Notes: a model not told the origin generated them from the sequence alone. DNA of 40,643 nt from Candidatus Nomurabacteria bacterium RIFCSPLOWO2_01_FULL_41_18 (GCA_001785865.1 MFUZ01000006.1:1-40643), one strand, 5' to 3'; counted from the first letter of the stretch, positions 3,780 through 40,643 are shown. Numbers and translations: made by a program.

Positions 3780-6341
3780 ATGTCTTTATTTGGCAAAATG
3801 TTCGGTAATGAGAGTTCTAAATTCATTGGAAACACATCAGGAATAGTGGCTAAAATCAACGCTTTTGAAGCGGATATTTCAAAGTTAAAAGATGAGGATT
3901 TTCCTAAAAAAACAGAAGGGTTTAAGGATAGACTAGCAAAAGCAGAGAATAAAGAAGAAATTCTGAATGAAATATTGCCTGAAGCTTTTGCTCTAGTGCG
4001 AGAAGCTGCCAAAAGGAATTTGGGTGAGAGACACTATGACGTCCAATTGATCGGAGGTATAGCACTTCACAGCGGAAAAATTGCCGAAATGCGAACTGGT
4101 GAGGGAAAAACTTTGGTGGCTGTTCTCCCAGCATATTTAAATGCATTAGTAGGGGAAGGGGTGCATATTGTTACTGTGAACGATTATCTTTCTCGTATCG
4201 GGGTAGTACTCATGGGTCAAGTTTATAATTTCTTAGGACTCACTGTTGGGGTTATTAATTCTAATAATGTTTCTTATTTATACGATGCCACGCACAAAGA
4301 AGAAGACAAGGAACGAGATGTAGTCGGAGAATTTAAAGTTGTTTATGATTTTTTAAAACCTTGTTCTCGCAAAGAGGCTTATCAAACAGATGTGACTTAT
4401 GGTACAAATCACGAATATGGTTTTGATTATTTGCGAGACAATTTAGCCACTTCAGTGGCGGATTTGGTTCAGCGTGGACATTATTATGCAATTGTTGACG
4501 AAGTGGACTCCATTTTGATAGATGAAGCGCGTACCCCGCTTATTATTTCTTCGGCATCCGGAGATTCTGGAGATTTTTATATTAAATTTTATCAAATCGC
4601 TAAACAGCTCAAAAGAGATACTGATTATGAAGTGGATGAAAAATTAAAAGCTATAACTTTGACTGATGTGGGTATCACGAAAGCTGAACAACTTTTAGGA
4701 GTACAAAATATTTATACAGAAAAAGGTATTAAATATGTTCATCACTTGGAAACGGCAGTAAAAGCACAAGCTATTTTTGAAAAAGATAAAGATTATGTAG
4801 TAAAAGAAGGGGAAGTGGTAATTGTGGATCCTTTTACTGGGCGTCTTCAGCCCGGACGTCGTTGGTCTGAAGGAATTCATCAAGCCATAGAGGCAAAAGA
4901 GGGTGTAAAGATAGAAAAAGAAACTCGTTCATCCGGGTCTATCACTTTCCAGAATTATTTTAGATTTTATAAAAAACTTTCAGGTATGACGGGTACTGCA
5001 GAGACTTCGGCAGAAGAATTTCTAAAAGTTTATGGTTTAGATGTGATAGTTATTCCGACCAATCGTCCTGTTGTGCGTAAAGATCACAATGATTTAATTT
5101 TTCAAACTGAAAAAGGAAAGTTTCAGGCTATTGCCAAAAAAGTGAAAGAATTAAATATGAAAGGGGAGCCAGTTTTGATCGGCACTATTTCAATTGAGAA
5201 AAATGAACTTCTTTCTGCATACCTCAAACAAGAAGGCGTGCCACATGTGATTTTGAATGCAAAGAATCACGAAAAAGAAGGAGAAATTATTGCACAAGCA
5301 GGAAAAAGAGGTGCAGTGACTATAGCTACAAACATGGCAGGACGTGGAATAGATATAAAACTCGGGGGTAACCCAATAATCAAGCCCGAATATGAATTTG
5401 TGAAGAGCGTCGGTGGGCTTTTTGTTTTAGGAACAGAGAGACATGAGGCAAGGAGAATAGACAACCAGCTAAGGGGGCGCTCTGGTAGACAAGGAGACCC
5501 AGGTGAGACGCAATTTTATGTTTCCCTCGAGGATGATTTGATGCGAGTGTTCGGTTCGGAACGGATCAAGACTATGATGGGGCGTTTCGGTATACCAGAA
5601 GATCAACCTATTGAGAATAGATTTATTGGCAGGACGCTAGAAGGAGCGCAAACAAAAATAGAAGGTTTTCATTTTGACGCTCGCAAACACACGCTTGAGT
5701 ACGATGACGTGATGAATCATCAACGTAAAATTATTTACGAGAGACGTCAGAAAATGCTTCAGGCGGATAAGAAGGGTATCGAAGACCTGATCTTGGATGT
5801 GGTCTCTGGAAAAGAAGGTGGGGACTCCGCCAAAGGGGACGGGGCAAGCAAGATAGTCGAGGAAAAAAGGAAAAAATTAGGAGGAGAGGCATTCCTAGAG
5901 GTTGTCCGTCGCATAGCACTGTATACTACAGATACGCTTTGGATGGAACATCTTGAAGCGATGGATTATTTGCGTAGTTCGGTCAATCTGCGTGCTTATG
6001 GTCAGAGGGAGCCTATCGTCGAATACAAAAAAGACGGGCTTATGATGTTTAAGGAAATGGAAGCAACTTTCAAAGAGCAAGTATTTTCCCTAATCGGTAC
6101 TATACAAGAGCCTGCCAAAGCGGAAGAGAATGCGCCAAAGCAGACTTTAATCACGAGCCATACAGAGTCCTCAGAGCTCGGAGGAAAGAAGGACGCCAGT
6201 CTGCCCAAAACAGACCTAGATATTGGCCGCAATGATCCGTGCCCTTGCGGAGCTATCAATCCGGCTACTGGCGAAGTATACAAATACAAGAAATGCGGCC
6301 TCATAAATGCGCCACAGCACAGAAAGTCGTTGATTAATTAA
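3780..6341 (+). CDS. secA: Preprotein translocase ATPase SecA
   Basis: MRTGEGKT, IVDEVDSILIDEARTPLIIS, ATNMAGRG, RRIDNQLRGRSGRQGDPG, C-terminal GRNDPCPC. Confidence 0.99.
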   Translation: MSLFGKMFGNESSKFIGNTSGIVAKINAFEADISKLKDEDFPKKTEGFKDRLAKAENKEEILNEILPEAFALVREAAKRNLGERHYDVQLIGGIALHSGKIAEMRTGEGKTLVAVLPAYLNALVGEGVHIVTVNDYLSRIGVVLMGQVYNFLGLTVGVINSNNVSYLYDATHKEEDKERDVVGEFKVVYDFLKPCSRKEAYQTDVTYGTNHEYGFDYLRDNLATSVADLVQRGHYYAIVDEVDSILIDEARTPLIISSASGDSGDFYIKFYQIAKQLKRDTDYEVDEKLKAITLTDVGITKAEQLLGVQNIYTEKGIKYVHHLETAVKAQAIFEKDKDYVVKEGEVVIVDPFTGRLQPGRRWSEGIHQAIEAKEGVKIEKETRSSGSITFQNYFRFYKKLSGMTGTAETSAEEFLKVYGLDVIVIPTNRPVVRKDHNDLIFQTEKGKFQAIAKKVKELNMKGEPVLIGTISIEKNELLSAYLKQEGVPHVILNAKNHEKEGEIIAQAGKRGAVTIATNMAGRGIDIKLGGNPIIKPEYEFVKSVGGLFVLGTERHEARRIDNQLRGRSGRQGDPGETQFYVSLEDDLMRVFGSERIKTMMGRFGIPEDQPIENRFIGRTLEGAQTKIEGFHFDARKHTLEYDDVMNHQRKIIYERRQKMLQADKKGIEDLILDVVSGKEGGDSAKGDGASKIVEEKRKKLGGEAFLEVVRRIALYTTDTLWMEHLEAMDYLRSSVNLRAYGQREPIVEYKKDGLMMFKEMEATFKEQVFSLIGTIQEPAKAEENAPKQTLITSHTESSELGGKKDASLPKTDLDIGRNDPCPCGAINPATGEVYKYKKCGLINAPQHRKSLIN

Positions 6342-6342
6342 A

Positions 6343-6849
6343 ATGCAACTAGTTAAACCTTCTGTTGAATATAAAGATAGTTTTTTAGAAGCCAAAAAAG
6401 AATATGAGGCTAATGGTGAAAGTATATACCTTCATGGACATAAACCTGACGATGATTTTGATAAACATCTTCTTAAGATTAAAGAAAGAGCAGAAGGAGT
6501 AAATCTACCTGCAGACAGAGTTCCGCAGACGGAATTATGGCTCATAGAAAATGGTAAATTTATAGGTTGGACCAAGATCAGGCACAAGCTCAATGAAAAT
6601 TTGCTTTTACAGGGTGGGCATATAGGATATTCCATAAGGCCCTCAATGCGAAATAAGGGCTATGGAACAAAAATACTAGAGTTGGCTTTAGATGAGGCAA
6701 AAAAACTAGGAATTGAAAAAGCATTACTGACTTGTGAAGATGACAACATAAATTCAGCTAAAGTTATAGAAAAGAATGGCGGTGTTTTGGAAAATAAAGT
6801 TACAGGCGATAGAAAACTTAAACGTAGGTATTGGATTGAAAATAAATAA
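6343..6849 (+). CDS. GNAT family acetyltransferase
   Basis: GGHIGYSIRPSMRNKGYG acetyl-CoA motif; NINSAKVIEKNGG. Confidence 0.9.
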   Translation: MQLVKPSVEYKDSFLEAKKEYEANGESIYLHGHKPDDDFDKHLLKIKERAEGVNLPADRVPQTELWLIENGKFIGWTKIRHKLNENLLLQGGHIGYSIRPSMRNKGYGTKILELALDEAKKLGIEKALLTCEDDNINSAKVIEKNGGVLENKVTGDRKLKRRYWIENK

Positions 6850-6850
6850 A

Positions 6851-7078
6851 ATGGAAAATAAAGTAAAACTAGGCACATATAAGCATTTTAAGGGGCATTT
6901 AGTTAAAGTTATTGGTGTTGCAAAACATACAGAAGATCCAGAAAAAGAATTTGTAGTTTATGAACATACTTACGAAGATGGTAAAATGCAACTCTGGATT
7001 AGACCAAAAGAAATGTTTTTAGAAGAAGTCGAAAGAGATGGTTATAAAGGTCCGAGGTTTGAGTATGTTGGAGAATAG
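6851..7078 (+). CDS. DUF1653 family protein
   Basis: GTYKHFKG..VVYE..WIRPKEMFLE..RF; start set at ATG 6851. Confidence 0.85.
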   Translation: MENKVKLGTYKHFKGHLVKVIGVAKHTEDPEKEFVVYEHTYEDGKMQLWIRPKEMFLEEVERDGYKGPRFEYVGE

Positions 7079-7082
7079 AATT

Positions 7083-7718: not shown

Positions 7719-7738
7719 TTTAATTTTATATAAAATTT

Positions 7739-8251: not shown

Positions 8252-9549
8252 AAAACATTAATTACAAAAATCTTAGAAGACGTTTTATAAATAATCTCTT
8301 GGGGTTTCACTTTTTTTATCCATATAAAAAATTAAAAATAATAGGGGTAACGGGCACAAATGGTAAAACTACTACAGCCACTCTCCTTTACCGTATTGCA
8401 ACTTCGCTCGGTTACAGGGCAGGTCTTATAAGCACAGTTGAACACATAATTGCAGGAGAATTAAAGATAGCAGAAGGCAATAAACCATCAACTTCGCCTG
8501 ATCTACCCTACTTGAATAAATTGTTGAGAGAAATAGTTGATAAAAAATGTCAGTATGTTTTTATGGAGGTTACTTCAATTGCCTTAGATCAAAATAGAAC
8601 AGCAGGAATAAAATTTACTGGTGGGATTTTTACGAATTTAACTCAAGACCATCTAGACTACCATAAGGATATGGAGGAATATTTTCAGGCGAAAAAGAAA
8701 TTTTTCAAAATGTTGTCTAAAGATGCTTTCGCACTAACGAACATTGATGATGAATATGGTTTGAAAATGTTGGAGGGGATTCAGACTAAAAAGTCTACTT
8801 ATTCTTTTCCTGCCCGCAATGCTTCCAGCATAGCTAATGCAGGCGGGGAAAATAACTCTGATTTTCAAGGAGAAATTAAAAAATTAGATTTCAACGGGCT
8901 TGAACTAGATTTCAACGGTAATCAAATAAAATCTAAATTACTTGGTAAGTTTAACGCTTATAATTTGCTTGCGGCCTGGAGCACATGTCAAATGCTTGGA
9001 TTTGACATGAAAAATGTAAATAAAATTTTGGAAAGCATAGCGCCGCCGGTGGGGAGGTTCGATCATTTTATGTCGAAGTCTGGAGTGCTGGTGATCGTGG
9101 ACTATGCTCACACCCCGGACGCATTGCAGAAAGTGCTTTTGACGATAGAGGAGATAAAAAGCAAAGAAGGTTTACCCCGCTTTGACGGGCGGGGCAGGAT
9201 AATTTCTGTGTTTGGCTGTGGGGGAGATCGTGATGTATCAAAACGCTCAAAGATGGGGAGAATCGGAGTCGCTCTATCAGACATCGCTATCTTTACCTCG
9301 GACAATCCTCGAAGCGAAGATCCAAATAAGATTATCGCTGACATGGCGGCCGAACTTACTTCGAAAGATATGCAAAAAGTGAAAAGAATTGAAAATAGAA
9401 GTGAAGCAATAAAAGAAGCAGTAAAGTCGGCACAAAGAGGAGATATAATTCTTTGCGCTGGCAAAGGCCATGAAGACTATCAAGAAATCAATGGTGTAAA
9501 AAGTCACTTTAATGATATGGAAGAGCTCAAAAAAGCTTTTTCTGTATAA
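8248..9549 (+). CDS. murE: UDP-MurNAc-Ala-Glu:meso-DAP ligase MurE (lacks N-terminal domain)
   Basis: GVTGTNGKTT, FTNLTQDHLDYH, VDYAHTPD, GCGGDRD, DNPR (DAP-type), AGKGHE. Confidence 0.95.
   Translation: MKNINYKNLRRRFINNLLGFHFFYPYKKLKIIGVTGTNGKTTTATLLYRIATSLGYRAGLISTVEHIIAGELKIAEGNKPSTSPDLPYLNKLLREIVDKKCQYVFMEVTSIALDQNRTAGIKFTGGIFTNLTQDHLDYHKDMEEYFQAKKKFFKMLSKDAFALTNIDDEYGLKMLEGIQTKKSTYSFPARNASSIANAGGENNSDFQGEIKKLDFNGLELDFNGNQIKSKLLGKFNAYNLLAAWSTCQMLGFDMKNVNKILESIAPPVGRFDHFMSKSGVLVIVDYAHTPDALQKVLLTIEEIKSKEGLPRFDGRGRIISVFGCGGDRDVSKRSKMGRIGVALSDIAIFTSDNPRSEDPNKIIADMAAELTSKDMQKVKRIENRSEAIKEAVKSAQRGDIILCAGKGHEDYQEINGVKSHFNDMEELKKAFSV
8809..8847 (+). repeat. 39-nt palindromic element, in frame in murE ([13 protein letters not shown])
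   Basis: CCTGCCCGCAATGCTTCCAGCATAGCTAATGCAGGCGGG; near-identical copies at 20228 and 33967. Confidence 0.9.
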
Positions 9550-9566: not shown

Positions 9567-12008
9567 ATGGTTCCACAAGCTAGCCTTTTCAGGTTTCTGG
9601 GTTATAAAATAAACGCAAAAGAGCGAAAAATAGTCTTCAAATACAGTATAGAATTTAAAAATACTTCTGCTCTTTCGTTTTCTGAAACTATAATCTTGCC
9701 TAAAAAAACCGAGAATTTAAACAAAGAATACGTTCACAAATTTCTTGAGCCCCTTAGTCTTATTTTGGGTATAAGTTATTATAAAATTTATTTTCCACCT
9801 CGAATATCAATTTCATTCAAGCTTTCCAAAGAAGAAGCACAATTTTGGAATGTCGTTTACAGAAAAGGTCTCGGAGAATTTTTGTATAAAAATAAACTTG
9901 ATCCTAAAAATCTGGCGAAATTTCCATACTCAAAAAAACAATCCGAACCTGTTAGAATAAATACAAATGACTCCATTTTGCTCGGCATAGGGGGAGGTAA
10001 AGATTCTATTGTCTCTCTGGAGCTTCTAAAGAATTTCCAGACTTCTCTGTTTTCTATTGAAACAATGCGTCTTGATAATATTTCTCGAAATGTCATAAAA
10101 AAATCAGGAAAAAGTTCCCTGACGCTAAATAGGATGCTTGACTCAAAAATTTTCCAACTACAAGATACATACAAAGGGCATATTCCCATATCGGCCATAT
10201 ATGCATTTCTGGGGACACTATCTTGTTTTTTATATGGACATAAATATTTTGTAGTTAGTAATGAATATAGTAGTAATTTCGGTAATTTAAAATATAAAGG
10301 TGCAGTTATCAATCATCAATGGAGTAAATCTGCTGAATTTGAAGTTTTGCTTCAAGAATATATCAAAAAATTCATCACTTCCGATATCACCTATTTTTCA
10401 TTACTTCGCCAATTTCATGAAATCAGAATCGCTAAAATGTTTGCCAATTACGAGAAATATTTTCATTTATTTGCTAGCTGTAATAGAAATTTTAATGTTT
10501 TAGGCGAAAGACAGAAAACCCTTTGGTGTGGAGAATGCCCAAAGTGCGCCTTTGTTTTCCTGATGCTTGCTCCATTTATTGAAAGAAACAAACTCACTTG
10601 GATTTTTGGCAAAAACTTGTTAAATGATCCTTCTCTTCTACCTCTTTATAATGACATATTAGGTTATGGCAAAATGAAGCCTTTTGACTGTGTTGGCACT
10701 TTTGAAGAATCCAGAGTTGCTCTCTTTCTTGCCTCGAAAAAGTTTAAACAGGATGTAGTGATGCTAGCGTTACTGCCTAAAATAAAAAATATAAAACAAA
10801 GTCTAGGTAAAGTTTTTCAAGTTTTTTCTGCACCGACACTTCCATCCAGATTTAAATTACTTGGTTTAGAAAAAGTGGGCATCTTGGGTTATGCTAGAGA
10901 AGGAAAAGTTACAGAGAAGTATCTAAAAAAGAATTATCCCCATCTTAAAATTAAAATATTAGACCAAGCTCGCGACAAGAATTATTTAGAAGAGCAAATG
11001 AACTTGGAATTTCTTATCAAAACTTCGGGTATTCCCAAAAGTAAAGTAAAAATTCCTTATACTACTGCCACCAATTTGTTCTTTTCAGAAAATAAAAATT
11101 TTACCATAGGAGTCACTGGTAGTAAGGGTAAAAGTACCACTGCAAGTCTAATATATGAAATTTTAAAGAGTGCTGGTAAAAAAGTCCGACTTCTTGGGAA
11201 TATAGGTAACCCTATGCTCGAAATTTCTTTTCAGAAACCTAAACCAGATGAAATTTTTATAATAGAACTTTCAAGCTATATGCTAGAAGACATAGAATAT
11301 TCTCCAAACATCGCAGTTTTGCTCAATCTTTTTCCAGACCACATGAATTATCATGAGGGAATAGAGAATTATTACAAAGCTAAAAACAACATTTTTAAAT
11401 TTCAGAAGCTAGGTGACATTGCCCTGCGTCCGCCTTTTATTGAAAAGATTCCCATGAAAGCGTCTGAAGTTCCTCTTCTGGGTGGGCATAATCTCACAAA
11501 TGTAAAAGCTGCTGTAAAGACTGCTAGAATTTTAGGAATATCTGACGAAAAAATAAGAAAAGCCATTCTAAATTTCAAGAGTCTTCCGCATCGATTGGAA
11601 AAGGTCGGAGAATTTAAAGGAATAAAGTTTTACGACGATGCAATATCTACTACCCCAGAGTCCACTATTGCGGCCATCGAGGCGCTCCCTAAAACGAGCA
11701 CGATAATGCTGGGCGGGGAGGACCGTGGCTATGATTTTACCAAGCTGGAAAAATTATTAAGGAAGAAAAAAATAAAAAATATAGTATTATTCCCGGAAAG
11801 CGGAAAAAGGATCTTGAAATCAAAAAAAGGATTTAATATCTTAGAGACGGATAAAATGGATGAGGCAGTTCATTTTGCCTTTCGAAATACAAGGGCAGGC
11901 GAGATCTGTCTTTTATCCACCGCCTCGCCTTCGTATTCTCTTTGGAAGAACTTCGAAGAAAAAGGGGATTCTTTTAAATTTTTTGTAAAAAAATATGCAA
12001 AACTTTGA
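9567..12008 (+). CDS. MurL (UDP-MurNAc-L-Ala-L-Glu epimerase)-MurD ligase fusion
   Basis: N-terminal half: GGGKDS, GHIP, NHQWSKS, SCNRNF, WCGECPKC, KPFDCVG (MurL-like). C-terminal half: GVTGSKGKSTT, LLGNIG, IELSSY, PDHMNYH, LPHRLE, DDAIST, GGEDRG, SPSYS (MurD). Confidence 0.85.
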   Translation: MVPQASLFRFLGYKINAKERKIVFKYSIEFKNTSALSFSETIILPKKTENLNKEYVHKFLEPLSLILGISYYKIYFPPRISISFKLSKEEAQFWNVVYRKGLGEFLYKNKLDPKNLAKFPYSKKQSEPVRINTNDSILLGIGGGKDSIVSLELLKNFQTSLFSIETMRLDNISRNVIKKSGKSSLTLNRMLDSKIFQLQDTYKGHIPISAIYAFLGTLSCFLYGHKYFVVSNEYSSNFGNLKYKGAVINHQWSKSAEFEVLLQEYIKKFITSDITYFSLLRQFHEIRIAKMFANYEKYFHLFASCNRNFNVLGERQKTLWCGECPKCAFVFLMLAPFIERNKLTWIFGKNLLNDPSLLPLYNDILGYGKMKPFDCVGTFEESRVALFLASKKFKQDVVMLALLPKIKNIKQSLGKVFQVFSAPTLPSRFKLLGLEKVGILGYAREGKVTEKYLKKNYPHLKIKILDQARDKNYLEEQMNLEFLIKTSGIPKSKVKIPYTTATNLFFSENKNFTIGVTGSKGKSTTASLIYEILKSAGKKVRLLGNIGNPMLEISFQKPKPDEIFIIELSSYMLEDIEYSPNIAVLLNLFPDHMNYHEGIENYYKAKNNIFKFQKLGDIALRPPFIEKIPMKASEVPLLGGHNLTNVKAAVKTARILGISDEKIRKAILNFKSLPHRLEKVGEFKGIKFYDDAISTTPESTIAAIEALPKTSTIMLGGEDRGYDFTKLEKLLRKKKIKNIVLFPESGKRILKSKKGFNILETDKMDEAVHFAFRNTRAGEICLLSTASPSYSLWKNFEEKGDSFKFFVKKYAKL

Positions 12009-13293
12009 TGTAAAAAAAATTAAAAAAGTTTTTTTTATCGGTATTGGCGGTATCGGTATTTCTGCCTTGGCCAAAATGGCTCTTTCCCGTGGAATGGAAG
12101 TTTTGGGGGTGAATGACGAAGAAAGTTCAAAAACTATTGATCCTCTCCGTGAAGCGGGGGCTGTTATTTTTTACCTGACTGCGCAGGCAGGCCAGAACGA
12201 ATTAAAAGAATTGCCAGATGCTGATCTATACATTTTCAGTGATGCATGGATCTATCGTGGGCCGGAAATTATCATTGAAGCGCGGAAGCGAGGCGTTCCA
12301 GTGTTGAGTTATTTTGAGGCTTTGGGTGTGTTTGCAAAAGAATACAAAGTTATCGCAATTGCCGGTACTCATGGCAAGACCACTACGACTGCCATGATTG
12401 CAGAAATGTTGGTAAGTGCCGGGCTAGATCCTACTGTCGTTGTAGGTTCTTTTGTAAAAAAATTTGGGAGTAATTTTAGAAAAGGTAATAGCGACCCACG
12501 CCAAGGCGGGGCAAGCTATTTAGTCGTAGAGGCAGACGAGTATAATAGGCACTTCTTAAATTTCAATCCATTTATCGGAGTTGTGACGAATGTTGAAGCA
12601 GATCATCTAGACTGTTATAAAGATTTAAAGGATATACAAAATGCATTTGATAAATTTATTTCCCAGAGCGAACATAAAGTTTTAGATTACTCTAAATATT
12701 TAGAAAAAGTTCCGAAACTTTCTGTGCCCGGGTTGCACAATAGGATGAATGCCGCCGCCGCTCTTGCCGTCGCGGATATTTTGAATATTAACATGGAGAA
12801 TGCCGCAAAATCCCTTGCGGAATTTTCTGGGACTTGGCGCAGGCTGGAAAAAAAAGGAGAAACGAAGGAAGGCGCTATCGTTTATGATGATTATGCTCAT
12901 CATCCGACTGAAATTAAAGCGAGTTTGCAAGCTTTGCGCGATCTTTATCAGAAGGGAGGGGAGAAAAACAAAATCATCACTGTTCTTTTTCAGCCACACC
13001 TCTACAGCCGGACTCGGGCGTTTTTTGACGATTTTTCTAAAAGCTTCAATGAAGCTGATAGGGTGTTTCTTCTGCCTATCTATTTTGCACGAGAAGACAA
13101 AGATGAAAGCATCTCTAGCGAAAAATTGGCTCTAGCTATCGGCAAAGTTGGAGGCAATGTGGAAGCATATCCTGATTTCGAATCGGCTGAAGATGCTGTT
13201 AAGGCCTTGAAGTTGGGGCCTAAAGACGTATTTGTAACTATGGGGGCGGGTGAAGCTTACAAAGTCGCTGATAAAGTGCTCAAACTAGTCTAG
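11995..13293 (+). CDS. murC: UDP-N-acetylmuramate:L-alanine ligase MurC
   Basis: IGIGGIGISALA, AGTHGKTTTT, VEADE, DHLD, DDYAHHPTEI, FQPH, MGAG. Confidence 0.95.
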   Translation: MQNFDVKKIKKVFFIGIGGIGISALAKMALSRGMEVLGVNDEESSKTIDPLREAGAVIFYLTAQAGQNELKELPDADLYIFSDAWIYRGPEIIIEARKRGVPVLSYFEALGVFAKEYKVIAIAGTHGKTTTTAMIAEMLVSAGLDPTVVVGSFVKKFGSNFRKGNSDPRQGGASYLVVEADEYNRHFLNFNPFIGVVTNVEADHLDCYKDLKDIQNAFDKFISQSEHKVLDYSKYLEKVPKLSVPGLHNRMNAAAALAVADILNINMENAAKSLAEFSGTWRRLEKKGETKEGAIVYDDYAHHPTEIKASLQALRDLYQKGGEKNKIITVLFQPHLYSRTRAFFDDFSKSFNEADRVFLLPIYFAREDKDESISSEKLALAIGKVGGNVEAYPDFESAEDAVKALKLGPKDVFVTMGAGEAYKVADKVLKLV

Positions 13294-17291: not shown

Positions 17292-17479
17292 AATGTTAAT
17301 AAAAAAATAAAATCCGCTCAAATAAGAAATTATGGAGCGGATATAAGGCTTAGGTTCTAAGGAAGCTATTTACCCCGCCAAGTGGGGCGGCGGCGAGCCT
17401 TCCTAGGGTTACCCTAAATCCTGCTACTTATTAAGTGCTTCTCTTTCAGACTAGCAAATAATATGCTAGAATGCAACCG

Positions 17480-18361: not shown

Positions 18362-20875
18362 ATGAAAAAAAATACAGACCCAAAAAACGAACCTGATAAT
18401 AATATCGATAAGATTTTGCCAGTTGATGTCGTCTCGGAAATGAAGGAATCCTATTTGGCGTATGCCATGTCGGTCATTACTTCCCGAGCCCTGCCGGATG
18501 TGAGAGACGGGCTCAAGCCGGTGCATCGCAGAATATTATTTGCTATGCATGAAATGGGGCTCACTTCGACCGCGCGCTTTCGAAAGTCCGCTACGGTAGT
18601 CGGAGATGTGCTCGGAAAATATCATCCGCACGGAGATGTGGCAGTCTATGAATCTATGGTGGGTATGGTGCAGGACTTTTCTTATCGCTATCCGCTTGTG
18701 TTAGGCCAAGGAAATTTCGGTTCGATCGACGGAGACAATGCGGCTGCGCATCGTTATACTGAGGCCAAGATGTCCCGAATTTCGAGCGAGCTTTTACGAG
18801 ACCTTGAAAAAGAAACTGTGGATTTTCGTCCGAACTACGATCAGACGCGCAAGGAGCCCGTCGTGTTGCCTTCTTCTGTCCCAGCGCTTCTTTTGAACGG
18901 TACTCTCGGTATAGCCGTCGGTATGGCCACCAACATACCTTCGCACAATCTGGCGGAGGTGCTCGATGCCACGACCCATCTGATCGAAAACGAAGATGCG
19001 ACGACCGAAGACCTAATGCAACATATTAAAGGGCCGGATTTTCCTACCGGAGGCATCGCTTACGGCTACAAAGATATGCTACATGCATATTCGAGCGGGC
19101 GTGGCGGAGTAGTTTGCCGAGGCGAGGCAGAGATAGTCGAACAAAAACCTGCCCGACCGGACGGTCGTTCGGGCGGGGATGGGAATTTTTCTATCATCAT
19201 TACCTCCATTCCTTTTCGGGTGAACAAATCGAATCTGATCGTGGCTATTGCCGAACTGGTGCAAGAAAAAAAGTTGGAAGGTATCAAGGGCTTGCGCGAT
19301 GAATCCGCAAAAGATATCCGGATCGTGATCGATCTCAAGTCGAGCGCTCATCCGGAAAAAGTGCTCAATTATATTTATAAGAACACCCAGCTCGAATCCA
19401 ATTTCAATTTCAACATAGTCGCGCTGGTGGACGGAGTGCCTCAGACGCTCTCGCTCAAATCTATTCTGGAGCAATTCATCCTGCACCGAAAGGACGTAGT
19501 CAAGAGAAGGAGTGCATATGACCTCCGCAAGGCCGAAGAGAGGGAGCACATACTGCTCGGCTTGAAGAAAGCCCTCGACAAGATCGACCGGGTGATCTCG
19601 ATCATCCGCGGGTCTAAGAATTCCCAGATCGCGAAAGTAAATTTGATGAAAGAATTCAAGTTTTCCGACCTGCAGGCGACGGCGATTCTCGAGATGAAGC
19701 TGTCGAAACTGGCGGGGCTCGAGAGGCAGGCGGTAGAGGACGAGCTTAAAGAAAAACAGAAATTCATTGCAGAAATGAAAGATCTTTTGGCTAGCCCGAA
19801 GAAGATACTGAAGATCATTGCGGGAGAATTGGCGGAGATCCGGACCAAATACGCGGATGAGCGCCGAACAAAAATAGTAAAAGGCGGAGTCAAGGAAATT
19901 TCGGATGAAGATTTGGTTCCAGAAAAAGAGACGATGCTAGTGCTCACCGCCGGCGGATATGTCAAATGCACCGATCCTTCCGAATACCGTGCTCAGAAGC
20001 GGGGCGGTGTGGGAGTGATAGACCTCGAGACCAAGGAGGAAGATTTCGTGACTATGCTTGTTTCCGGTTCGACGCACAGCAATTTACTCTTCTTCACAAA
20101 TTTGGGGAAGGTCTATCAAATGAAAATGTACGAAATTCCAGAGGGTCGTAGGGCGACAAAAGGTAAGTCCATTATGAATTTCTTGTCTTTGTCAGGAGAA
20201 GAAAAGGTAAATTCTATTTTAGCAATGCCTGCCCGCAATGTTTCTAGCATAGCTAATGCAGGCGGGCCTAAAGAATCGCTCATGCTGGTCACCAAGAATG
20301 GCACAGCGAAAAAAATGTCCTCCGAAAGCTTCAAAGACGTGCGCCGAAGCGGGATTATCGCTATCCGCCTCGATAAAGACGACCAGCTAATTTCCGCGCT
20401 CATTACTGAAAAAGGCGATGAGGTGATGATCGCGACAGGCGACGGACAGTCCATTCGATTCAAAGAGTCTGATGTCCGGGAAATGGGCAGGACCGCAGGC
20501 GGAGTGAGTGGTATAAAATTAGGAAAAGGAGACCTAGTCATCGGAGTCGACGTGGTTAAAAAAGACCAAAAGGCAGGTGCATTTCTTACCATGAGCGCAA
20601 ACGGCTTTGGTAAGAAGACGGACCTCAAAGAATACAAAGTACAAAGGCGAGGAGGTTCCGGAATAAAAACTGCGAAGATAACTTCGAAGACAGGTAAACT
20701 CATTGTGGCCAAGGTGCTCACTGATGGCGAAGAAGAACTAATCGCCATGTCAAAGAAGGGCCAAGTCATCCGAACTTCCCTCAAGGATATTTCCTCTCTC
20801 GGCAGGCAGACCCAGGGCGTGACCGTCATGAGGCTTCGAGCCGGCGATGGCATAGCGTCTCTAGCCTGCATATAA
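18362..20875 (+). CDS. gyrA: DNA gyrase subunit A
   Basis: [25 protein letters not shown], GyrA box QKRGGVG, beta-pinwheel repeats. Confidence 0.98.
19148..19177 (+). repeat. 30-nt palindromic in-frame insertion in gyrA ([10 protein letters not shown])
   Basis: CCTGCCCGACCGGACGGTCGTTCGGGCGGG. Confidence 0.75.
20228..20266 (+). repeat. 39-nt palindromic element, in frame in gyrA ([13 protein letters not shown])
   Basis: Copy of the 8809-8847 element. Confidence 0.9.
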
Positions 20876-27009: not shown

Positions 27010-27148
27010 TTCGCCCATCAAAAAGCCAAAATATTCAGCTACTTGGTGGGCGAACCATGCCTATCTAACCCTGTTGTCAAAGGACAGCTTGCCCCGCCTA
27101 AGACGGGGTTTACATCTATACTATATCACAAAATACAGTAAAAGTCAA
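27010..27148 (-). promoter_or_regulatory. Leader element B: promoter, boxA-like motif and 21-bp hairpin
   Basis: TTGACT (27148-27143), 17 nt, TATAGT; CTGTCCTTTGACAA; hairpin 27010-27054; interrupted by a CCCCG..CGGGGCAAG palindrome (27088-27113). Confidence 0.7.
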
Positions 27149-30785: not shown

Positions 30786-32417
30786 TTATTTCTGCGCTAT
30801 GGAAAATAATTCGATCACATCACTAGGAGCGACTTCTATCTTGGATTCGATCATCATGCCGAACTCTTGTCCCTCTTCTACGGTGCCCGTCTTCACTTTA
30901 CTTTTTTCGAGGTTTACAATTTTTCCGCGTCCGATCTCAAATTCTCGGCGCATGATTCGTACGGTGCCGTTTAGGACCATAGCTCCCTCTATGACCTTGC
31001 CTCCGATGATCTGTCGCTCTTTGGTACGGCTGAAAGCGCGGATGATCTTCGCCCGTCCTGTGGTCTCGATCGTCTCTATTCTTGGCCTCCTTTTTTCCAT
31101 CTCTTCTTCGAGCCATTCAGTCATTTTGTAAATGATGTCAAAGAAAGAAATGGTGATCCCTCTTTTCTCGGCGATCTCGATCGCGCTCTTGTCGGCCTTT
31201 ACATTGAACCCGATAATAATTGCATTCTCGCTGTTCGAAATGTTCTTGATGTCGGACTCCGAAATAGAGCCCACACCCTTCGAGATGATCCTGAATTCCG
31301 CGTTCTTTACTTCCGCTTTACATTTTATTTTTAGTATTTCTTTTTCAATAGCTTCGAGAGAACCGGATACGTCGGCTCTGAGCAGTATAGGTATAATTTT
31401 TTTATTGCCGTCGGAGTCTTCTTTGGAGGCATTATTGGAAGCATCGCTAGGGGATAGTATCTTGTCGCAATTTTCTGCATAATCAAGGGCGTCCTGCTTT
31501 TTTTTGAAACTTTTAAACTTGGCGCCAACTTTTGGCATCTTGTCAAAACCGTAAAGACGTACAGGGGAGGAAGGTTCTGCCACATCTATCATCTCTCCTT
31601 TAAAATTTTGAATTATTCGCGTCGAGCAGATGGTGTCTTCTACTGCTACTGTCATTCCTTTTTTTAACGAGCCGTTCTTTATGATTAGGGTTGCTTGTAT
31701 TCCACGCTTTACGTCCAGATTCGCTTCGATGACGAAGCCAGAGGCGTCTTCTTCTACACTTGCGGTAAAGTTTTCCATTTCTGTCAAAATCAATATGAGG
31801 GAGAGCAGATTGTCGATTCCGGTGCCGACTTTGGCGGAAACTTCTACGAAGGGGATTTTCCCGCCGTAATTTTCCAGATAGATCTCGTTTTCGGCTAATT
31901 CTTGTTTTGTTTTTTCTACGTTGGCTCCTGGCTTGTCTATTTTGTTGATAGCGACGATGCTAGGGAGATTCATTTCGGTAATCGTTTTCCATGCTTCGAT
32001 AGTCTGTGGTTTTACTCCGTCCTCCGCGGACACTACCAAGATAGCGATGTCGGCGATGATTGCTCCGCGTTCACGCATCTTTGAAAAAGCTTCATGTCCG
32101 GGGGTATCCAAGAAAGTGATTCTGCGATTAGCAGAATCATCTCTTCGAGCCTGAGCCTCAGAGCCGATGGCCCGAGCTGGTCGAGGGATCCCTCGATTCT
32201 CTTCGTTCTCTCGGGATTTCGGTTCCTCTGAAGGAACCTCAACTTCATAAGCTGAAATTTTTTGGGTTATGCCGCCGGCTTCACCTTCGGTGACGTTTGT
32301 CTTGCGGATATAGTCGAGCAGAGTCGACTTGCCATGGTCGATATGCCCCATCACCACCACGACTGGTGGCCGAGGTATCGTATTTAGTTTTTTTTGTGTT
32401 GTCATGTTTTTGTTCAA
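30786..32417 (-). CDS. infB: Translation initiation factor IF-2 (short form; start 32417 or 32405)
   Basis: RPPVVVVMGHIDHGKS, EAGGITQ, FLDTPGHEAF, AINKID, IIGFNV. Confidence 0.97.
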   Translation of the reverse strand: MNKNMTTQKKLNTIPRPPVVVVMGHIDHGKSTLLDYIRKTNVTEGEAGGITQKISAYEVEVPSEEPKSRENEENRGIPRPARAIGSEAQARRDDSANRRITFLDTPGHEAFSKMRERGAIIADIAILVVSAEDGVKPQTIEAWKTITEMNLPSIVAINKIDKPGANVEKTKQELAENEIYLENYGGKIPFVEVSAKVGTGIDNLLSLILILTEMENFTASVEEDASGFVIEANLDVKRGIQATLIIKNGSLKKGMTVAVEDTICSTRIIQNFKGEMIDVAEPSSPVRLYGFDKMPKVGAKFKSFKKKQDALDYAENCDKILSPSDASNNASKEDSDGNKKIIPILLRADVSGSLEAIEKEILKIKCKAEVKNAEFRIISKGVGSISESDIKNISNSENAIIIGFNVKADKSAIEIAEKRGITISFFDIIYKMTEWLEEEMEKRRPRIETIETTGRAKIIRAFSRTKERQIIGGKVIEGAMVLNGTVRIMRREFEIGRGKIVNLEKSKVKTGTVEEGQEFGMMIESKIEVAPSDVIELFSIAQK

Positions 32418-32928: not shown

Positions 32929-34152
32929 ATGCCCAAATCAAACATAAAGACAAGCAAGGCGACGAAGAAAGTGTATATGGATTATGCATCATCCGCTCTT
33001 TCGGTTTCGGCAAATCCTGGGGCGATTCATTCTCTTGGCGTAGCGGAAAAAAATAAATTAGAGAAGTCGAGAGGGATAGTCGCTGGGATCTTGAATGCGC
33101 ACAGTTCCGAGATAGTATTTACTTCCGGAGCGACCGAGAGCAATAATTTAGCTATTTTAGGGTTAGTGAAGGCGGTAAAAATGCCGCATATAGTCACCAC
33201 AAACATAGAGCACGCTTCCGTTTTGGAAGTTTGCAAGCATTTAGAAAATACAAAACAAGCGGAGGTGACCTATGTGCCGGTCGATGCAAACGGGGTGGTG
33301 GATCCCCAAAAAATTAAAAAAGCTTTGAAAGCGAATACTATTTTAGTATCAGTGATGTATGCGAACAATGAAATAGGCACGATACAACCAATAAAAGAAA
33401 TAGCAAAAGAAATCAGGCACTTTGATAAAATAAATAATAAAAAAATATTTTTCCATACCGATGCCACACAAGCAGTAAATTACTTGCCAATAAGCATTCC
33501 TCAACTTGGTGTAGATCTGATGTCTTTCAATAGCGTAAAAATTTATGGACCGAAGGGAATAGGCGCTTTGTATGTGAAAAAAAATACACCTCTTACTCCA
33601 ATTATGTTTGGCGGAAATCAGGAGTTTGGGTTGCGACCTGGGACAGAAAACGTTTCTCTTGCTGTAGAACTTTCAAAAGCACTTCAGACTACGGAAAATA
33701 AAAAAGAAAAAGAAATAAAAAGATTAACTCAACTCAGGGATTATTTTATTAAAAAATTAAAAAGTAAAAATGTTGATTTTGTGTTGAATGGGGATTTAGA
33801 AAAAAGATTGCCGAATAATATAAATATTACTATTCCAAACATTCCAAGTGATCTGTTAGTTATAGAATTATCAACTAGGGGAATAATGGCTTCCACAAAA
33901 AGTGCTTGCAAAGCGGGGGACGGTAAAGCTTCACACGTTATCAAAGCCATTCGTTCAGAAATAAAACCTGCCCGCAATGCTTTCAGCATAGCTGATGCAG
34001 GCGAGGAAACAGATGGTTCAATAAGATTTTCATTAGGTAGACAGACAACCAAATCAGATATTGATTATACAGTAAAATCTCTATCCGAAATTTTGACTAA
34101 ATTAAAAAAGTGGTATACCCCCACACCTATTAATTTCTTTGACTTGAAATAG
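32929..34152 (+). CDS. Cysteine desulfurase (IscS/NifS family, class V PLP enzyme)
   Basis: YMDYAS, FTSGATESNN, IEHASV, ANNEIG, HTDATQ, KIYGPKG, RPGTEN, SAC. Confidence 0.92.
   Translation: MPKSNIKTSKATKKVYMDYASSALSVSANPGAIHSLGVAEKNKLEKSRGIVAGILNAHSSEIVFTSGATESNNLAILGLVKAVKMPHIVTTNIEHASVLEVCKHLENTKQAEVTYVPVDANGVVDPQKIKKALKANTILVSVMYANNEIGTIQPIKEIAKEIRHFDKINNKKIFFHTDATQAVNYLPISIPQLGVDLMSFNSVKIYGPKGIGALYVKKNTPLTPIMFGGNQEFGLRPGTENVSLAVELSKALQTTENKKEKEIKRLTQLRDYFIKKLKSKNVDFVLNGDLEKRLPNNINITIPNIPSDLLVIELSTRGIMASTKSACKAGDGKASHVIKAIRSEIKPARNAFSIADAGEETDGSIRFSLGRQTTKSDIDYTVKSLSEILTKLKKWYTPTPINFFDLK
33967..34005 (+). repeat. 39-nt palindromic element, in frame in the cysteine desulfurase (PARNAFSIADAGE)
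   Basis: Third copy of the 8809/20228 element. Confidence 0.9.
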
Positions 34153-34981: not shown

Positions 34982-35058
34982 TTCCCTAAAGACACTTGAC
35001 ACCAGGTGTATAATGGAAGTATGGGAAGGGGAAGTAATAGATAAATAATGAAAAATAT

Positions 35059-37800
35059 ATGCCACCATTAAATAGATTTACAACTAAATCAAAGGATGCT
35101 ATCAAAAAAGCTCATGAGCTCGCAATTGAGCGTGGGGTCAACCACGTTTCTTCGTTGCACCTACTCGCGGCGCTCCTTTTGCAGGAAGAGAGCATGGTAA
35201 ACTCCATCTTGGATAAATTGGAGATAGATACGATGCTCCTGACTGATTCTATCTTGGAGCTTATCGAATTGCCCGAAACGCGCAGCACTCTTTCTCCATC
35301 GTATCAGATCTATCTCAACCCTGACTTGGCGCAAGTGATAGAACAATCGGCCAAACTGGCAGAATCGATGAAAGATGATTTCGTTTCGACCGAGCATCTG
35401 TTTATTGCGATACTGGAAGTGACTTCCGAGGCGCGCGAAACTTTGGCGCGATTCAGGATTCACAAAGATTCTGTCATGAAAGTAGTGGAAGAATTGCGTA
35501 GCCAAAATATTACCGATGTGACCGAGCCGAAAAAATTTAAAACTCTATTAAAATTTACTCGCAATCTGACCAAGCTGGCGAAAGAAGACAAATTGGATCC
35601 AGTCATCGGTCGGGACAATGAAATAACGCGGATCATGCAGATACTTTCACGAAGGACTAAAAATAATCCTATCTTGATCGGCGAGGCCGGCACCGGGAAG
35701 ACGGCCGTAGTGGAAGGTCTGGCGCAGATGATCGTCAAAAATAATGTTCCAGAGTCTTTGAAAGACAAGGAACTTGTTTCGCTTGACCTGGGGCTTCTTG
35801 TAGCCGGTACAAAATATCGCGGAGAATTCGAAGAGCGACTGAAGAGTATCATGAAAGAGATCGAGCGCTCGGATGGCAAAGTGATCCTCTTTATCGACGA
35901 GATCCACACGATTGTCGGGGCCGGAGGCGCGGAAGGAACTATGGATGCTTCAAACATGCTCAAGCCTGCATTGTCTCGCGGAGAACTGCGGGCGATCGGT
36001 GCGACTACCCTACGAGAATATCAAAAACACATTGAAAAAGATCCTGCGCTCGCACGCCGTTTTCAGCCGGTATATATCGATGAACCGAGTGTTGAAGACG
36101 CTATCGCTATCTTGCGCGGACTCAAAGAAAAATATGAGCTTTTTCACGGTGTGCGTATTACCGACGACGCTATAGTTTCGGCCGTCAATCTCTCTGCACG
36201 CTATATCACCAACAGATTTTTGCCGGATAAAGCTGTGGACTTGATAGATGAGGCTTCTTCTTCACTTAAGATAATGTTGGAAAATAAGCCACCAGTTTTA
36301 GAAGATGCGCATAGAAAAATAATGCGTTTGGAAATAGAGAAAGAAGCATTAAAAAAAGAAATTGTTTCTTTGGGCGGGGAAACACACAAGGAAGAAAAGG
36401 AAAAAGCAAAAGAAAAAATTCACGAAATAAAAGACAGGCTCAAGGAAGTAGATAAAGAAATAGGTAATCTGCATGAAAAAACCAAAGAACTTGAATTGAA
36501 ATGGCAAAATGAAAAAAACATTGTAGTTGAAATTCGTGCGATCAAAAAAGATCTAGAAAGTTTGCGTCTAGAAGCCGAGAATGCAGAGATGAAGTCTGAT
36601 CTTTCCAGTGCTGCAGAAATAAGATATGGAAAAATACCCACATTAAAAAAAGAATTGGAAACAAAACTTCTAAGGTTAAAAAAGTTGCAAAAATCACGCC
36701 GAATTTTGAAAGAAGAAATCACCGCGGAAGATATTGCCGAGGTAGTGGCTCGCTGGACGGGAATACCGCTTACTAAGATGTTGGAAGAAGAACGTGAAAA
36801 ACTAGAGAAGATGGAACTCGAGTTAGAGAAGCGAGTGGTGGGCCAGAAGGAGGCCATAGGGCGTGTGTCAGACGTCATCAGACGTTCGCGCGCTGGAATC
36901 GGCGACCCAAATAGACCTATAGGTTCATTTATTTTCTTGGGTCCAACAGGAGTTGGTAAGACAGAGCTTACAAAAGCGTTGGGGCAGTTTATGTTCAATG
37001 ACGACAAGGCAGTTATCCGAGTGGACATGTCTGAATATATGGAAAGACATTCAGTTTCAAAACTGATTGGTTCTCCTCCCGGATATGTCGGTTATGATGA
37101 AGCGGGACAATTGACCGAATCCGTCCGACACAGGCCGTATGCGGTGATCCTGTTCGATGAGATAGAAAAAGCTCATCCGGAAGTTTTCAACATGCTTCTC
37201 TCGGTCATCGATGAGGGCAGGCTGACTGACGGAAAAGGCAGAGTGGTCAATTTCAAAAACACGATCATTATTCTCACTTCCAATATCGGTTCTCAATTCG
37301 TGGAAAAAATGGAATCGATCGGATTTTCGAACAATTCTAAGAAAACCGATTATGCCAACATGAAAGATAAAGTCATGGAAGCATTGAAGGACAGTTTCCG
37401 TCCAGAATTCTTGAATCGCTTGGATGAAATTATTGTATTCGATGTTTTGTCCGAGGAAGCGATAAAAGAAATAGTGAACTTGAGGATAAAAGTGGTCAGA
37501 GATCGCTTAGCTCTCAAAGGTATTGATCTTGAAATAAACGAAGAAGCTTTGTCTTATTTAGCAAAAGAAGGATACAATCCGCATTATGGTGCGAGACCAC
37601 TCAACCGTTTAATTCAAAATAAAATCTTGAATCCTGTAGCATCCTATATTATTTCAAATGGGGTGAAGAAAGGGGATATTGTTTCTGTGTCCGTTAAAGA
37701 AAACGGACTTCTAATTGAAACAAAAAAAGGCCCCGCCATAGGACGGGCAAGCAAAATAAAAAGCTCTATTAGTGTGCAGTCCAAGTCTAACGTGTTATAA
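35059..37800 (+). CDS. clpB: ClpB-type AAA+ chaperone
   Basis: [28 protein letters not shown], long middle coiled coil (AAEIRYG), [24 protein letters not shown]. Confidence 0.92.
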
Positions 37801-38418: not shown

Positions 38419-38511
38419 AATTTCTTAATCATCATATGTTAGTGCAATTTTTTATGTTGCATGGTAGAGTGGTCAATTGTAATTTTGATTGTGCCATGTT
38501 ATTATTAAGTA

Positions 38512-39330
38512 ATGGCTAAACGCTGGACAAAAAGAGAAGAAGACAAATATCGTTCTGAACTTTTTAATCTTTATGTTAAACAGAATAAAAGTTTACGTGA
38601 AATTTCAAAAGTTTTAGGTATATCGGAACAAACAGTTTTTAAAAGATTGGGACGCTTAGGAATTAAAACAGAACCTAATCTGAAAAAGAATTACTTAAAA
38701 AAGCGAACTGATATAAAGATTCCAAAAAAATACTCTGAAGATCTAGCAGAATTCTTTGGTATTATGCTTGGCGATGGGCATGTAAGTCATTTTCAAGTTG
38801 TTGTTAGTTTAGGAACTAAAGAAGAAAAGTATGCAAAGTATGTTAAATTACTTATCCAAAGAATATTTAGTACAAATGTAAAAATTTCCGTTAATAAAAA
38901 AGGACACAGAGATGTTTATCTGGGCTCAGTAGATATAACGTCGTGGTTGTTGAAACAGGGTCTTGTTCACAATAAAGTAAAATCACAGGTTGATGTTCCA
39001 CGGTGGATATTTAGTAAAAATAATTTCACGAAACGTTTTCTCAGGGGTTTTTTTGATACTGACGGGTCTGTATATAAATTGAAATATGGTATCCAAATAT
39101 CTTTTTGCAACAGGTCTTTCCCAATACTTAAATCTTTACAATTGATGCTTAAAAAGTTAGAATACAGTCCATCAAGTATTAGTTTGTACAACATGTATCT
39201 TACAAAAAGAGGAGATGTGGAAAGGTTCTTTACAGAAATAAAACCATCTAACTTTAAGCATGTAAATCGATATTTGAGTTTCAAGAATAATTTGCGCCGG
39301 TCGTATAGTGGCAATTACACGACGCTGTAA
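38512..39330 (+). CDS. LAGLIDADG homing endonuclease with N-terminal HTH
   Basis: SLREISKVLGISEQTVFKRL (HTH); LAEFFGIMLGDG and FLRGFFDTDGS (two LAGLIDADG motifs). Confidence 0.92.
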   Translation: MAKRWTKREEDKYRSELFNLYVKQNKSLREISKVLGISEQTVFKRLGRLGIKTEPNLKKNYLKKRTDIKIPKKYSEDLAEFFGIMLGDGHVSHFQVVVSLGTKEEKYAKYVKLLIQRIFSTNVKISVNKKGHRDVYLGSVDITSWLLKQGLVHNKVKSQVDVPRWIFSKNNFTKRFLRGFFDTDGSVYKLKYGIQISFCNRSFPILKSLQLMLKKLEYSPSSISLYNMYLTKRGDVERFFTEIKPSNFKHVNRYLSFKNNLRRSYSGNYTTL

Positions 39331-39375
39331 ACGTCGCGGCTTCGGCCTCCGGGGGTTCGAGTCCCTCCCGGCGCA
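39294..39375 (+). tRNA. tRNA-Tyr(GTA)
   Basis: GCGCCGG/CCGGCGC; anticodon loop CTGTAAA; long variable arm. Confidence 0.93.
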
Positions 39376-39466
39376 CAAAACTTGTTGTTTTCTAAAAACT
39401 ATGTTATTATAAAGTAGCTTTTCGAAAGCTCTGATGTTTTTTTGGAGCTTTTTTATTTATAAAAAT

Positions 39467-39541
39467 ATGGAAATACGAAACCCCGAACGAAAGCCTTCGG
39501 CTTCATACGGGGCAGGTATAGCAATTAGTAAAGTTATATAA
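39467..39541 (+). pseudogene. Stranded duplicate of the typA 5' end with a palindromic insertion
   Basis: Translates as MEIRN-PERKPSASYGAG-IAI-SKVI-stop versus TypA MEIRNIAI. Confidence 0.75.
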
Positions 39542-39550
39542 ATATTATTT

Positions 39551-40643
39551 ATGGAAATTAGGAATATCGCTATTATCGCCCATGTGGATCATGGCAAGAC
39601 CACTTTGACCGATGCTTTAATGAAGCAAAACGGAGGTCTGCAGGATGAAGGAATTTCAATGGATTCAAACGCTCTCGAAAAAGAGCGGGGTATCACCATT
39701 TACTCAAAAAATACCTCTATCTATTATAAGGATACAAAAATAAATATAGTCGATACCCCGGGCCACGCGGACTTTGGTTCGGAAGTCGAACGGGTCCTGC
39801 GCGCTGTCGATTCAGTTTTATTGCTGGTAGATAGCGTCGAAGGGCCGATGCCTCAGACCAGATTCGTCTTAAAAAAATCTCTCGAGTTAGGCCTCAAGCC
39901 GATTGTGGTCATCAATAAGATCGACAAGCCTGCCGCGGAGCCGCATCGAGTGCATGATGAGATCCTAGGGCTTTTTTTTGAATTGAATGCAACCGAAGAA
40001 CAGGCGAATTTTGAAACTATTTACGCTATCGGACGCAAAGGACAGGCCTTCAGGCATTTAGATGACAAATCTGCAGATCTCTCTCCACTCCTCGATATGA
40101 TTTTGGAAAAGATTCCGCCTGCTTCGACCAAGCAAGACGAAAAAATGTCGGCGCAGGTCTTCAATTTGGGCTACGATAATTTCCTAGGCAGAATGGCCGT
40201 AATGAGAATTTATTCCGGTAAAATTTCTGCTGGAAGCACGATCGTCGTCAAAGGGGAAAATGGCACGCGCAAAGGCAAGATCACAAAACTTTTTTCCTTC
40301 GAAGGCATAGTCAGAAAGGAAGTGGAGTTTGCCACAGCGGGCGATATTGTCCTCCTCGCTGGAATTCCTGACATCTATATCGGTGAAACAGTCTGTGAAG
40401 ATGAGAGCGTCGAACCGCTTCCGCACATTGCGATCGATGAACCGACTCTTTCTCTGAACTTTTTAGTGAACGATTCTCCATTCGCGGGTAAAGAAGGAAA
40501 ATTTGTCACCTCTAGGCAAATAAAAGAGCGCTTGGAAAAAGAACTTGAAATAAACGTCGGGCTAAAAGTAGATTTTTCCCCGCCTGAAATAAGCGGGGCA
40601 AGCTCCCGACAAGGCCCGAACTTTTTCAAAGTGTACGGCCGGG
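39551..40643 (+). CDS. typA: Translational GTPase TypA/BipA (runs off window end)
   Basis: [68 protein letters not shown]. Confidence 0.97.

Follow-up and report, generated by a model that had tools for sequence, protein, structure and literature searches.

Elements of the IS200/IS605 family transpose as single strands, possess hairpin ends with a tetranucleotide beside the hairpin, and insert seamlessly. The GC clusters of yeast mitochondria are short GC-rich palindromes that lie, sometimes within coding sequence, in an AT-richer genome, and their mobiliser is not known; in some yeast mitochondria, GC-rich inserts are bypassed during translation. Rickettsia palindromic elements (RPEs) are approximately 100–150 bp long, that is, several times longer than the elements considered here, and we know of no transposase for them. 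Here we analyse a family of GC-rich hairpins of 18–39 nucleotides (nt), typically with an adjoining CAAG or CAGG (CARG) tag, that appear as in-frame insertions in conserved genes (secA, murE, murC, gyrA, clpB and typA, as identified by NCBIfam matches) of Candidatus Nomurabacteria bacterium RIFCSPLOWO2_01_FULL_41_18 (GCA_001785865.1; G000 below, other G numbers being compared genomes). The window (that is, the whole 40,643-nt stretch analysed, MFUZ01000006.1:1-40643) comprises bases 1–40,643 of contig C6 of a genome of 749,714 bases in nine contigs (approximately 40% G+C), the assembly of which has a completeness rating of 100%.

According to Di Nocera et al. 2013 (PMC3733652), some repetitive extragenic palindromic (REP) sequences tagged with GTAG or CGTC lie wholly within open reading frames (ORFs), REP families without a dedicated transposase exist, and RPEs, which have a CGTC end, are inserted in frame in genes. 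The hairpins of G000 resemble the system of REP/REPIN sequences and REP-associated tyrosine transposases (RAYTs) in being imperfect GC-rich palindromes of 20–40 nt with an end tetranucleotide, many dispersed copies, several families and no target duplication. They differ in their tag (CARG, or CYTG on the other strand, rather than GTAG or CGTC), in units that go down to 18–21 nt, in occurring as single and mostly intragenic copies (27 of 30) where REPs are extragenic and often form inverted doublets, and in having no cognate RAYT flanked by the family (0 of 92 loci) and none at all in G000. As the same text describes them, RPEs are likewise in-frame palindromic repeats that add residues at tolerant places of functional proteins, but they have a CGTC end and belong to an unrelated lineage, whereas the elements here measure 18–39 nt and carry CARG (a comparison by description). 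With IS200/IS605 the hairpins share the adjoining tetranucleotide, the lack of duplication and possibly seamless loss (that is, the patchy clpB site); unlike them, they show no strand bias, point to no specific target tetranucleotide, carry a single hairpin instead of two distinct ends and lack an enzyme gene. The absence of target-site duplications and of any rve or DDE_Tnp_1 gene in the genome distinguishes them from a miniature inverted-repeat transposable element of a DDE transposon. Yeast GC clusters, finally, are organellar. All copies here are in frame, which argues for translation over bypass. Intragenic REPs and RPEs are already published; what sets the G000 hairpins apart is their tag, size, single-copy layout and mostly intragenic position. 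The literature searched contained no description of such elements from the candidate phyla radiation.

We lean, with confidence a little above even, towards the reading that these hairpins are REP-like miniature palindromic insertion elements that were moved by a HUH Y1 (RAYT-like) enzyme and now persist as orphan copies.

Palindromic units at filled and empty sites

Comparison with orthologs from congeners (between 1 and 29 per gene) shows whole units of 18–39 nt that entered genes without target duplication (Table 1). The second of two inserts in murC (murC-2) is carried by none of 28 aligned congeners and is also absent in G067, whereas the first (murC-1) is absent in 26 of the 28, the remaining two having unrelated extra residues, and is common only to G000 and G067, the copy in G067 being a perfect palindrome. 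Palindromes of the murC-1 type also occur in secA of G045 and in another gene of G050. MurC has been hit elsewhere too: G013 and G018 have in common a diverged 21-nt copy seven codons upstream of the murC-2 site, and G033 has a 24-nt copy between these two positions, which makes three insert sites within 30 residues. A reading of the G013 and G018 inserts as opposite orientations at a single site was rejected, as letter-by-letter alignment resolves them into one diverged orthologous insert.

The murE insert is found in none of ten congeners. In gyrA, caaaaa and gatggg directly border the insert on its two sides, without duplication; 27 of 29 sites are empty, G067 carries a homologue of 27 nt in this position, and in G056 another palindrome lies two residues further upstream. 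Elements of the gyrA type also occur in clpB of G032. SecA of G000 has eight residues more than that of its closest relatives (G013, G018 and G067), in a loop of variable length, and the element in a class-V aminotransferase gene is absent in G045, the sole congener compared. In clpB (29 genomes including G000, the truncated locus L118 being left out), six genomes have a seven-residue insert at the KKG/KIKS junction, which is well preserved in G000 and G048 but decayed in the other four; a further four retain remnants of 3–6 residues and 19 are empty. The typA hairpin peptide is found in none of 29 congeners, with a net gain of only 3–4 residues rather than eight, and its hairpin lies approximately 40 bases before a scaffold gap of 19 N. 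This gap (L031:1644-1662) starts one base past the window end (40643/40644) and interrupts typA, the reading frame of which differs across it because the gap length is arbitrary.

The tag arrived with the insert in gyrA, murC-2 and clpB. None of six clean junctions (the two murC sites, murE, gyrA, secA and the aminotransferase) has a target duplication, and element ends at the insertion junctions are seamless. A model in which one arm was copied backwards from the host flank was rejected, as the gyrA, murC-2 and aminotransferase inserts contain both arms. The initial annotation had listed seven coding hairpins as in-frame inserts that leave plausible native sequence on removal. All seven lie where it placed them, in genes whose names it gave correctly, and empty sites in murC, murE, gyrA and secA bear out the claim; it falls short for typA, where the net gain is smaller than the hairpin, and the clpB insert proved not to be private to G000.

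As a control, 25 genes of the window were aligned with those of up to nine syntenic congeners, yielding 48 lineage-specific insertions of at least three residues. Of these, 18 are internal, comprise at least five residues and come from alignments of at least four genomes; for 8 of the 18, the fold surpasses that of 98% of equally long windows from the gene concerned, and these eight include all four clean insertions of G000 (murE, both murC sites and gyrA). Palindromic insertion is therefore a major source of indels in the genes examined, in several genomes and through several families.

Anatomy and abundance of the hairpin family

The conserved end is CAAG or CAGG, which adjoins the hairpin and is unpaired. 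CGGGGCARG occurs eight times in the window against 0.34 expected, a number reached by none of 100 shuffles, and 26 times against 8.9 when one mismatch is allowed; across the 750-kb genome it has 37 sites and ranks third in frequency among GC-rich 9-mers. When perfect GC-rich hairpins were counted across the genome without reference to any motif (416 in all), CAGG and CAAG came fourth and sixth among the tetranucleotides beside them (14 and 13 of the 832 flanks, with approximately three expected for each). A looser test (at least five pairs, one mismatch) gave 183 hairpins for CAAG and CAGG together against a median of 63 per tetranucleotide, and did not discriminate, as TTTT reached 352.

Requiring the hairpin to end in GGG before CARG leaves 47 elements in the genome. 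Copies occur singly and not as doublets, the nearest two being approximately 950 nt apart. The short form reads CCCCGCC, a loop of 3–9 nt, GGCGGGG and CARG, and long-stem forms have the same feet. A third form, CCCGCC...CGGGCAGG, spans 27–39 nt and includes the gyrA copy and the aminotransferase copy, the latter with three similar copies elsewhere in the genome. There are at least three sub-families with ends of the CCCG...CGGG-CARG type, and each member of the superfamily would consist of a short, GC-rich hairpin that stands on conserved CCCG...CGGG feet and bears an unpaired CARG at one of its ends. The murC-1 copy represents yet another family, CCTGxCTGCGCAGGCAGG, of which the genome has six copies. 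The ends that had been proposed as common to all copies are over-represented genome-wide, although the copies at 12174 (murC-1) and 19148 (gyrA) fall into sub-families other than CCCCGCC...GGCGGGG-CARG.

Individual folds are modest (z from −0.8 to −4.2), and for secA, murC-1 and murC-2 as many as 27–36 of 200 shuffles fold equally well. The weakness of single hairpins, together with the position of the typA copy beside a scaffold gap, is what an explanation by chance GC-rich hairpins or assembly errors can draw on. We nevertheless regard that explanation as scarcely credible, given the shuffle controls, a reversed-pattern control (see below), the presence of the families in many genomes and the fact that the alleles are unchanged in contigs of other runs (X5 and X9); in these contigs, which may miss rare empty alleles, only filled alleles were seen, with no indel or joint at the hairpins. 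Metagenome runs that contain the stretch come from groundwater, soil and sediment; no RNA run was among those listed for it.

The genome also harbours other palindrome families: TCCGCCnnnGGCGGA, often followed by TCAGCCnnnGGCTGA (26 copies), CCTCTCC-loop-GGAGAGG nested in ACCTCACCC arms (approximately 18 copies) and CCTCCCCCTT...AAGGGGGAGG (six copies), with example sites at C6:129197, C8:48227 and C2:28257.

Inheritance and decay

G067, the nearest relative found, shares murC-1 and the gyrA element (27 versus 30 nt) with G000, and is empty at secA, murE and murC-2. The latter inserts are private to G000, and every private insert falls into the CGGGG-CARG sub-family. A ClpB tree, which represents a single gene and has many open forks, unites G000 and G013, both of which have the insert, with the empty G018 (support 95/80), and the other insert carriers in it have empty sisters. 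The clpB site may thus reflect either several exact losses or repeated hits at the same site. Together, these alignments show elements that are inherited, that drift and decay, or that may have been lost again.

Position in proteins

Against solved structures, the murC-2 insert coincides with an exact seven-residue gap in MurC (9ir5_A) and the gyrA insert with an eight-residue gap in GyrA (9nx4_A). In an AlphaFold2 model of MurC built from a 23-sequence alignment (A1; mean predicted local distance difference test (pLDDT) score, 88.1), residues 61–77 are coil with a block pLDDT of 61, including the murC-1 insert (residues 61–66, mean pLDDT 61), and residues 163–174 form a loop between strands 159–162 and 175–179 that takes in murC-2 (residues 168–174). 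As judged from this model and from the gaps in solved structures, the inserts sit in loops of conserved proteins, as the initial annotation had anticipated in proposing that hairpins add loops. Alignments likewise show that surviving copies have lengths that are multiples of three, occupy tolerant loops and keep the reading frame open.

The inserts are probably translated, adding 6–13 residues. If they were instead removed before or during translation (for example, as a tiny intron or by ribosomal bypass), the proteins would not be lengthened; this we consider very improbable, as every coding copy examined is in frame and free of stops, the shared gyrA copy differs by 3 nt between G000 and G067, and the clpB remnants comprise 3–6 codons. 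A kept frame, a 3-nt change and codon-sized remnants are what selection on a translated insert predicts.

Distribution in the genus and phylum

We searched for CCCG-N5-14-CGGGGCARG, a pattern that itself fixes the feet. Of 201 genomes in the genus, 122 contain it, the reversed control pattern giving seven hits in all, and so do 143 of 401 genomes across the phylum (these tallies, those of Y1 and GIY-YIG genes below and one set of orthologs include the unpublished genomes G072, G135, G143 and G366, and no claim is based on those alone). G000 has 12 copies, among the highest counts in the genus. In 47 unique copies, AC stands before CCCG in 34, and hairpin plus tag most commonly spans 19 or 20 nt. 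The phylum copies listed, as read off rather than tallied, vary in their inner stem pairs among several complementary types (AT/AT, AC/GT and TA/TA), and one 20-nt variant occurs in different genes and frames in different genomes.

Among 30 sampled copies (one per genome), 27 lie inside ORFs of at least 120 residues, compared with 85% of random windows of the same loci (p 0.6); in G000, 9 of 12 do so. Copies within the sampled ORFs are sense in 20 cases and antisense in seven (p 0.02), and all three frames are used (PAxxGAS, PRHGGAS and TPPRRGK). These figures bear on the possibility that the hairpins are not mobile and have been kept for a function in DNA, RNA or protein (as a signal for binding or uptake, as an RNA structure or as a Pro/Gly/Ala loop), their likeness being due to convergence or gene conversion. 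The ORF frequency that chance placement predicts and the favoured sense orientation would fit such a function, as would orthologous copies that are letter-identical in two genomes with differing flanks, although these copies were chosen by the search pattern. Yet orthologs differ by whole inserted units of 18–39 nt rather than by substitutions, all three frames and both orientations are used, clpB copies decay freely, and the insert sites are unrelated loops of unrelated proteins; we therefore judge a non-mobile origin unlikely.

Search for the mobiliser

The initial annotation stated that the mobiliser is not in the window, which agrees with our searches: Y1_Tnp has no match at E values up to 1 in the whole G000 genome, nor do the TnpB nuclease domain, rve, DDE_Tnp_1 or DUF559. 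Elsewhere in the genus, Y1_Tnp matches occur in 144 of 201 genomes (142 over the cut-off), at up to 14 per genome, in ORFs of approximately 210–250 residues; RAYT-like Y1 genes are missing from G000, G013, G044, G050 and others. At 25 of 40 RAYT-like loci, the same hairpin lies on both sides of the gene (read by eye from the output), that is, a REPtron layout. The RAYT-flanking hairpins are of mixed composition and of the type NNNNAGG-loop-CCTNNNN, and each RAYT-like clade has its own (loci L158-L163, L168-L183 and L221-L241). In G045, the ortholog of the aminotransferase gene of the window (32929-34152) contains a 36-nt in-frame insert, LKFWELSSQVGA, which is a TTTTGGGAGC-loop-GCTCCCAAAA hairpin, and the same hairpin flanks one of that genome's own RAYT-like genes elsewhere (L179). 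This is the one direct link seen between RAYT-like enzymes and in-frame insertion.

We suggest that the elements would have moved as single-stranded hairpins, cut and rejoined by a HUH Y1 (RAYT-like) enzyme of the kind common in the genus. This step is supported by the hairpin-plus-tag anatomy, the lack of duplication, the Y1 genes in the genus, the REPtron layout and the G045 hairpin. The enzyme for the CARG family may have acted in trans or since been lost, in which case the G000 copies would be orphans, probably immobile now.

Several observations weigh against this scenario. In a sample of 92 Y1 loci, some scoring below the cut-off, which were drawn from the more than 570 matches and cover 60-odd genomes, CCCG...CGGGG-CARG flanks not a single one, so that the handling of this family by HUH/RAYT enzymes, as the initial annotation had envisaged it, found no confirmation there; the 1.5 kb around each of 30 family copies contain neither a Y1 nor a GIY-YIG homologue, and genomes without Y1 carry as many copies as others (G000 12, G013 9 and G070 9). 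The tag is neither GTAG nor CGTC. At the murE site, G067, which is empty there, has ...aat ggc agg ata..., which makes native sequence the simplest account of CAGG, and the tag could therefore in part be a target. No two copies in G000 are identical, so nothing shows recent movement. The lack of depletion in ORFs is odd for random insertion because the commonest hairpin-plus-tag spans are not multiples of three, and a replication-strand bias is not clear on contig C6 (11 copies co-oriented with the leading strand versus seven, the GC skew switching near 100 kb). Single hairpins are weak, and the case is carried by the shared ends and the empty sites.

Alternatively, the hairpins could be mobile through an enzyme other than Y1 (for example, small stand-alone GIY-YIG nucleases that cut the hairpin or cruciform) and spread by repair, which we think rather improbable. 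Five GIY-YIG genes occur in G000, which lacks all five of the transposase or nuclease families searched for, and GIY-YIG genes are present in 53 of 61 congeners. The five (82–125 residues) are the only selfish-looking nuclease genes in G000. Three of them lie by tRNA genes between direct repeats that consist of a tRNA 5′ fragment and a GC-rich palindrome, which sits in or before the D-arm and belongs to families also found inside genes; the same holds in G015, and a family copy abuts one cassette (C8:30516-30540). Against this, none of 25 further loci has a CARG-tagged hairpin on both sides, the CCTGxCTG...CAGxCAGG palindrome lies near only 2 of 34 GIY-YIG loci, no GIY-YIG gene falls within 1.5 kb of the 30 family copies, and the cassette palindromes, being part of duplicated tRNA fragments, may be mere passengers; a link between GIY-YIG and the CARG family is not supported. 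The wider proposal of a RAYT-independent class of ultra-short elements that prefer coding sequence, leave sites seamlessly and are moved by an unrecognised enzyme such as GIY-YIG is, in our view, doubtful to the same degree.

The GIY-YIG cassettes (G000 C2:35611-36007, C8:30541-30945 and C6:307187-307645; L264:1415-1910 in G015) look like cassettes that insert into tRNA genes and restore them, and among 23 additional GIY-YIG loci from the genus, 9 have a tRNA or transfer-messenger RNA gene no more than approximately 150 nt away. At G000 C2:35968-36060, directly after tRNA-Ile(tat), a tRNA-like gene that ARAGORN does not call contains a 30-nt double hairpin inside its D-loop, being either a disrupted copy or a tolerated insert.

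Copies and other features of the window

The coordinates of all copies are given in Table 1. The aminotransferase element is absent from the earlier list, and of five intergenic copies on that list, four stand as placed, whereas the one at 17369-17388 has no CARG tag.

Table 1 Palindromic elements in the window, by position in coding and then intergenic sequence
Feature	Coordinates	Strand	Description
secA hairpin + CAAG tag	5825..5848	+	24 nt, SAKGDGAS; variable-length loop; imperfect hairpin, z −1.2
murE hairpin + CAGG	9175..9198	+	inserted 24 nt by alignment, 9169-9192 or 9171-9194
murC-1 near-perfect palindrome CCTGACTGCGCAGGCAGG	12174..12191	.	18 nt, LTAQAG, residues 61-66
murC-2 hairpin + CAAG	12495..12515	+	21 nt, PRQGGAS, residues 168-174; private to G000
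gyrA element	19148..19177	-	30 nt, 10 residues; minus strand reads CCCGCC...CAGG
class-V aminotransferase palindromic element, PARNAFSIADAGE	33967..34005	-	39 nt; absent from the initial annotation
clpB hairpin + CAAG, C-terminal tail	37731..37751	+	21 nt, PAIGRAS; old insertion
typA hairpin + CAAG	40579..40602	+	PPEISGAS; variable loop
Intergenic copy, ~200 nt downstream of 16S rRNA 3′ end	738..762	+	z −4.2
Intergenic long-stem copy, between tRNA cluster and secA	3728..3760	-	
Intergenic copy CCCCGTCTTAGGCGGGGCAAG (minus strand)	27088..27108	-	
Intergenic long-stem copy, between tRNA-Tyr and typA	39481..39516	+	
Doubtful: CCCCG/TGGGG stem (5 bp), no CARG tag	17369..17388	.	at most a decayed relative

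At its start the window has the 3′ portion of a 16S rRNA gene, and eight tRNA genes lie within it; an Rfam scan of it matched only tRNAs and 16S. The ORF at 9567-12008 encodes 813 residues, of which only the last 300 match the Mur ligase M and C domains, and congeners align over approximately 370–390 residues only. The IF-2 gene (30786-32417, minus strand) has a 17-residue insert, EEPKSRENEENRGIPRP, at residues 76–92 that is lineage-specific relative to the two congeners compared and the DNA of which folds at −12.3 kcal/mol.

Implications

The prevailing view is that genomes of approximately 0.75 Mb have shed their selfish DNA; despite its tiny genome, G000 bears repeat insertions, predicted to be translated, in the essential enzymes GyrA, MurC, MurE, SecA, ClpB and TypA. 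Such insertions show, by natural experiment, which loops of drug-target enzymes tolerate insertion. In uncultivated bacteria, they are also a source of lineage-specific indels that can mislead alignment and gene calling. Finding the mobiliser of the orphan family would extend our understanding of how minimal a mobile element can be (that is, 18–21 nt).

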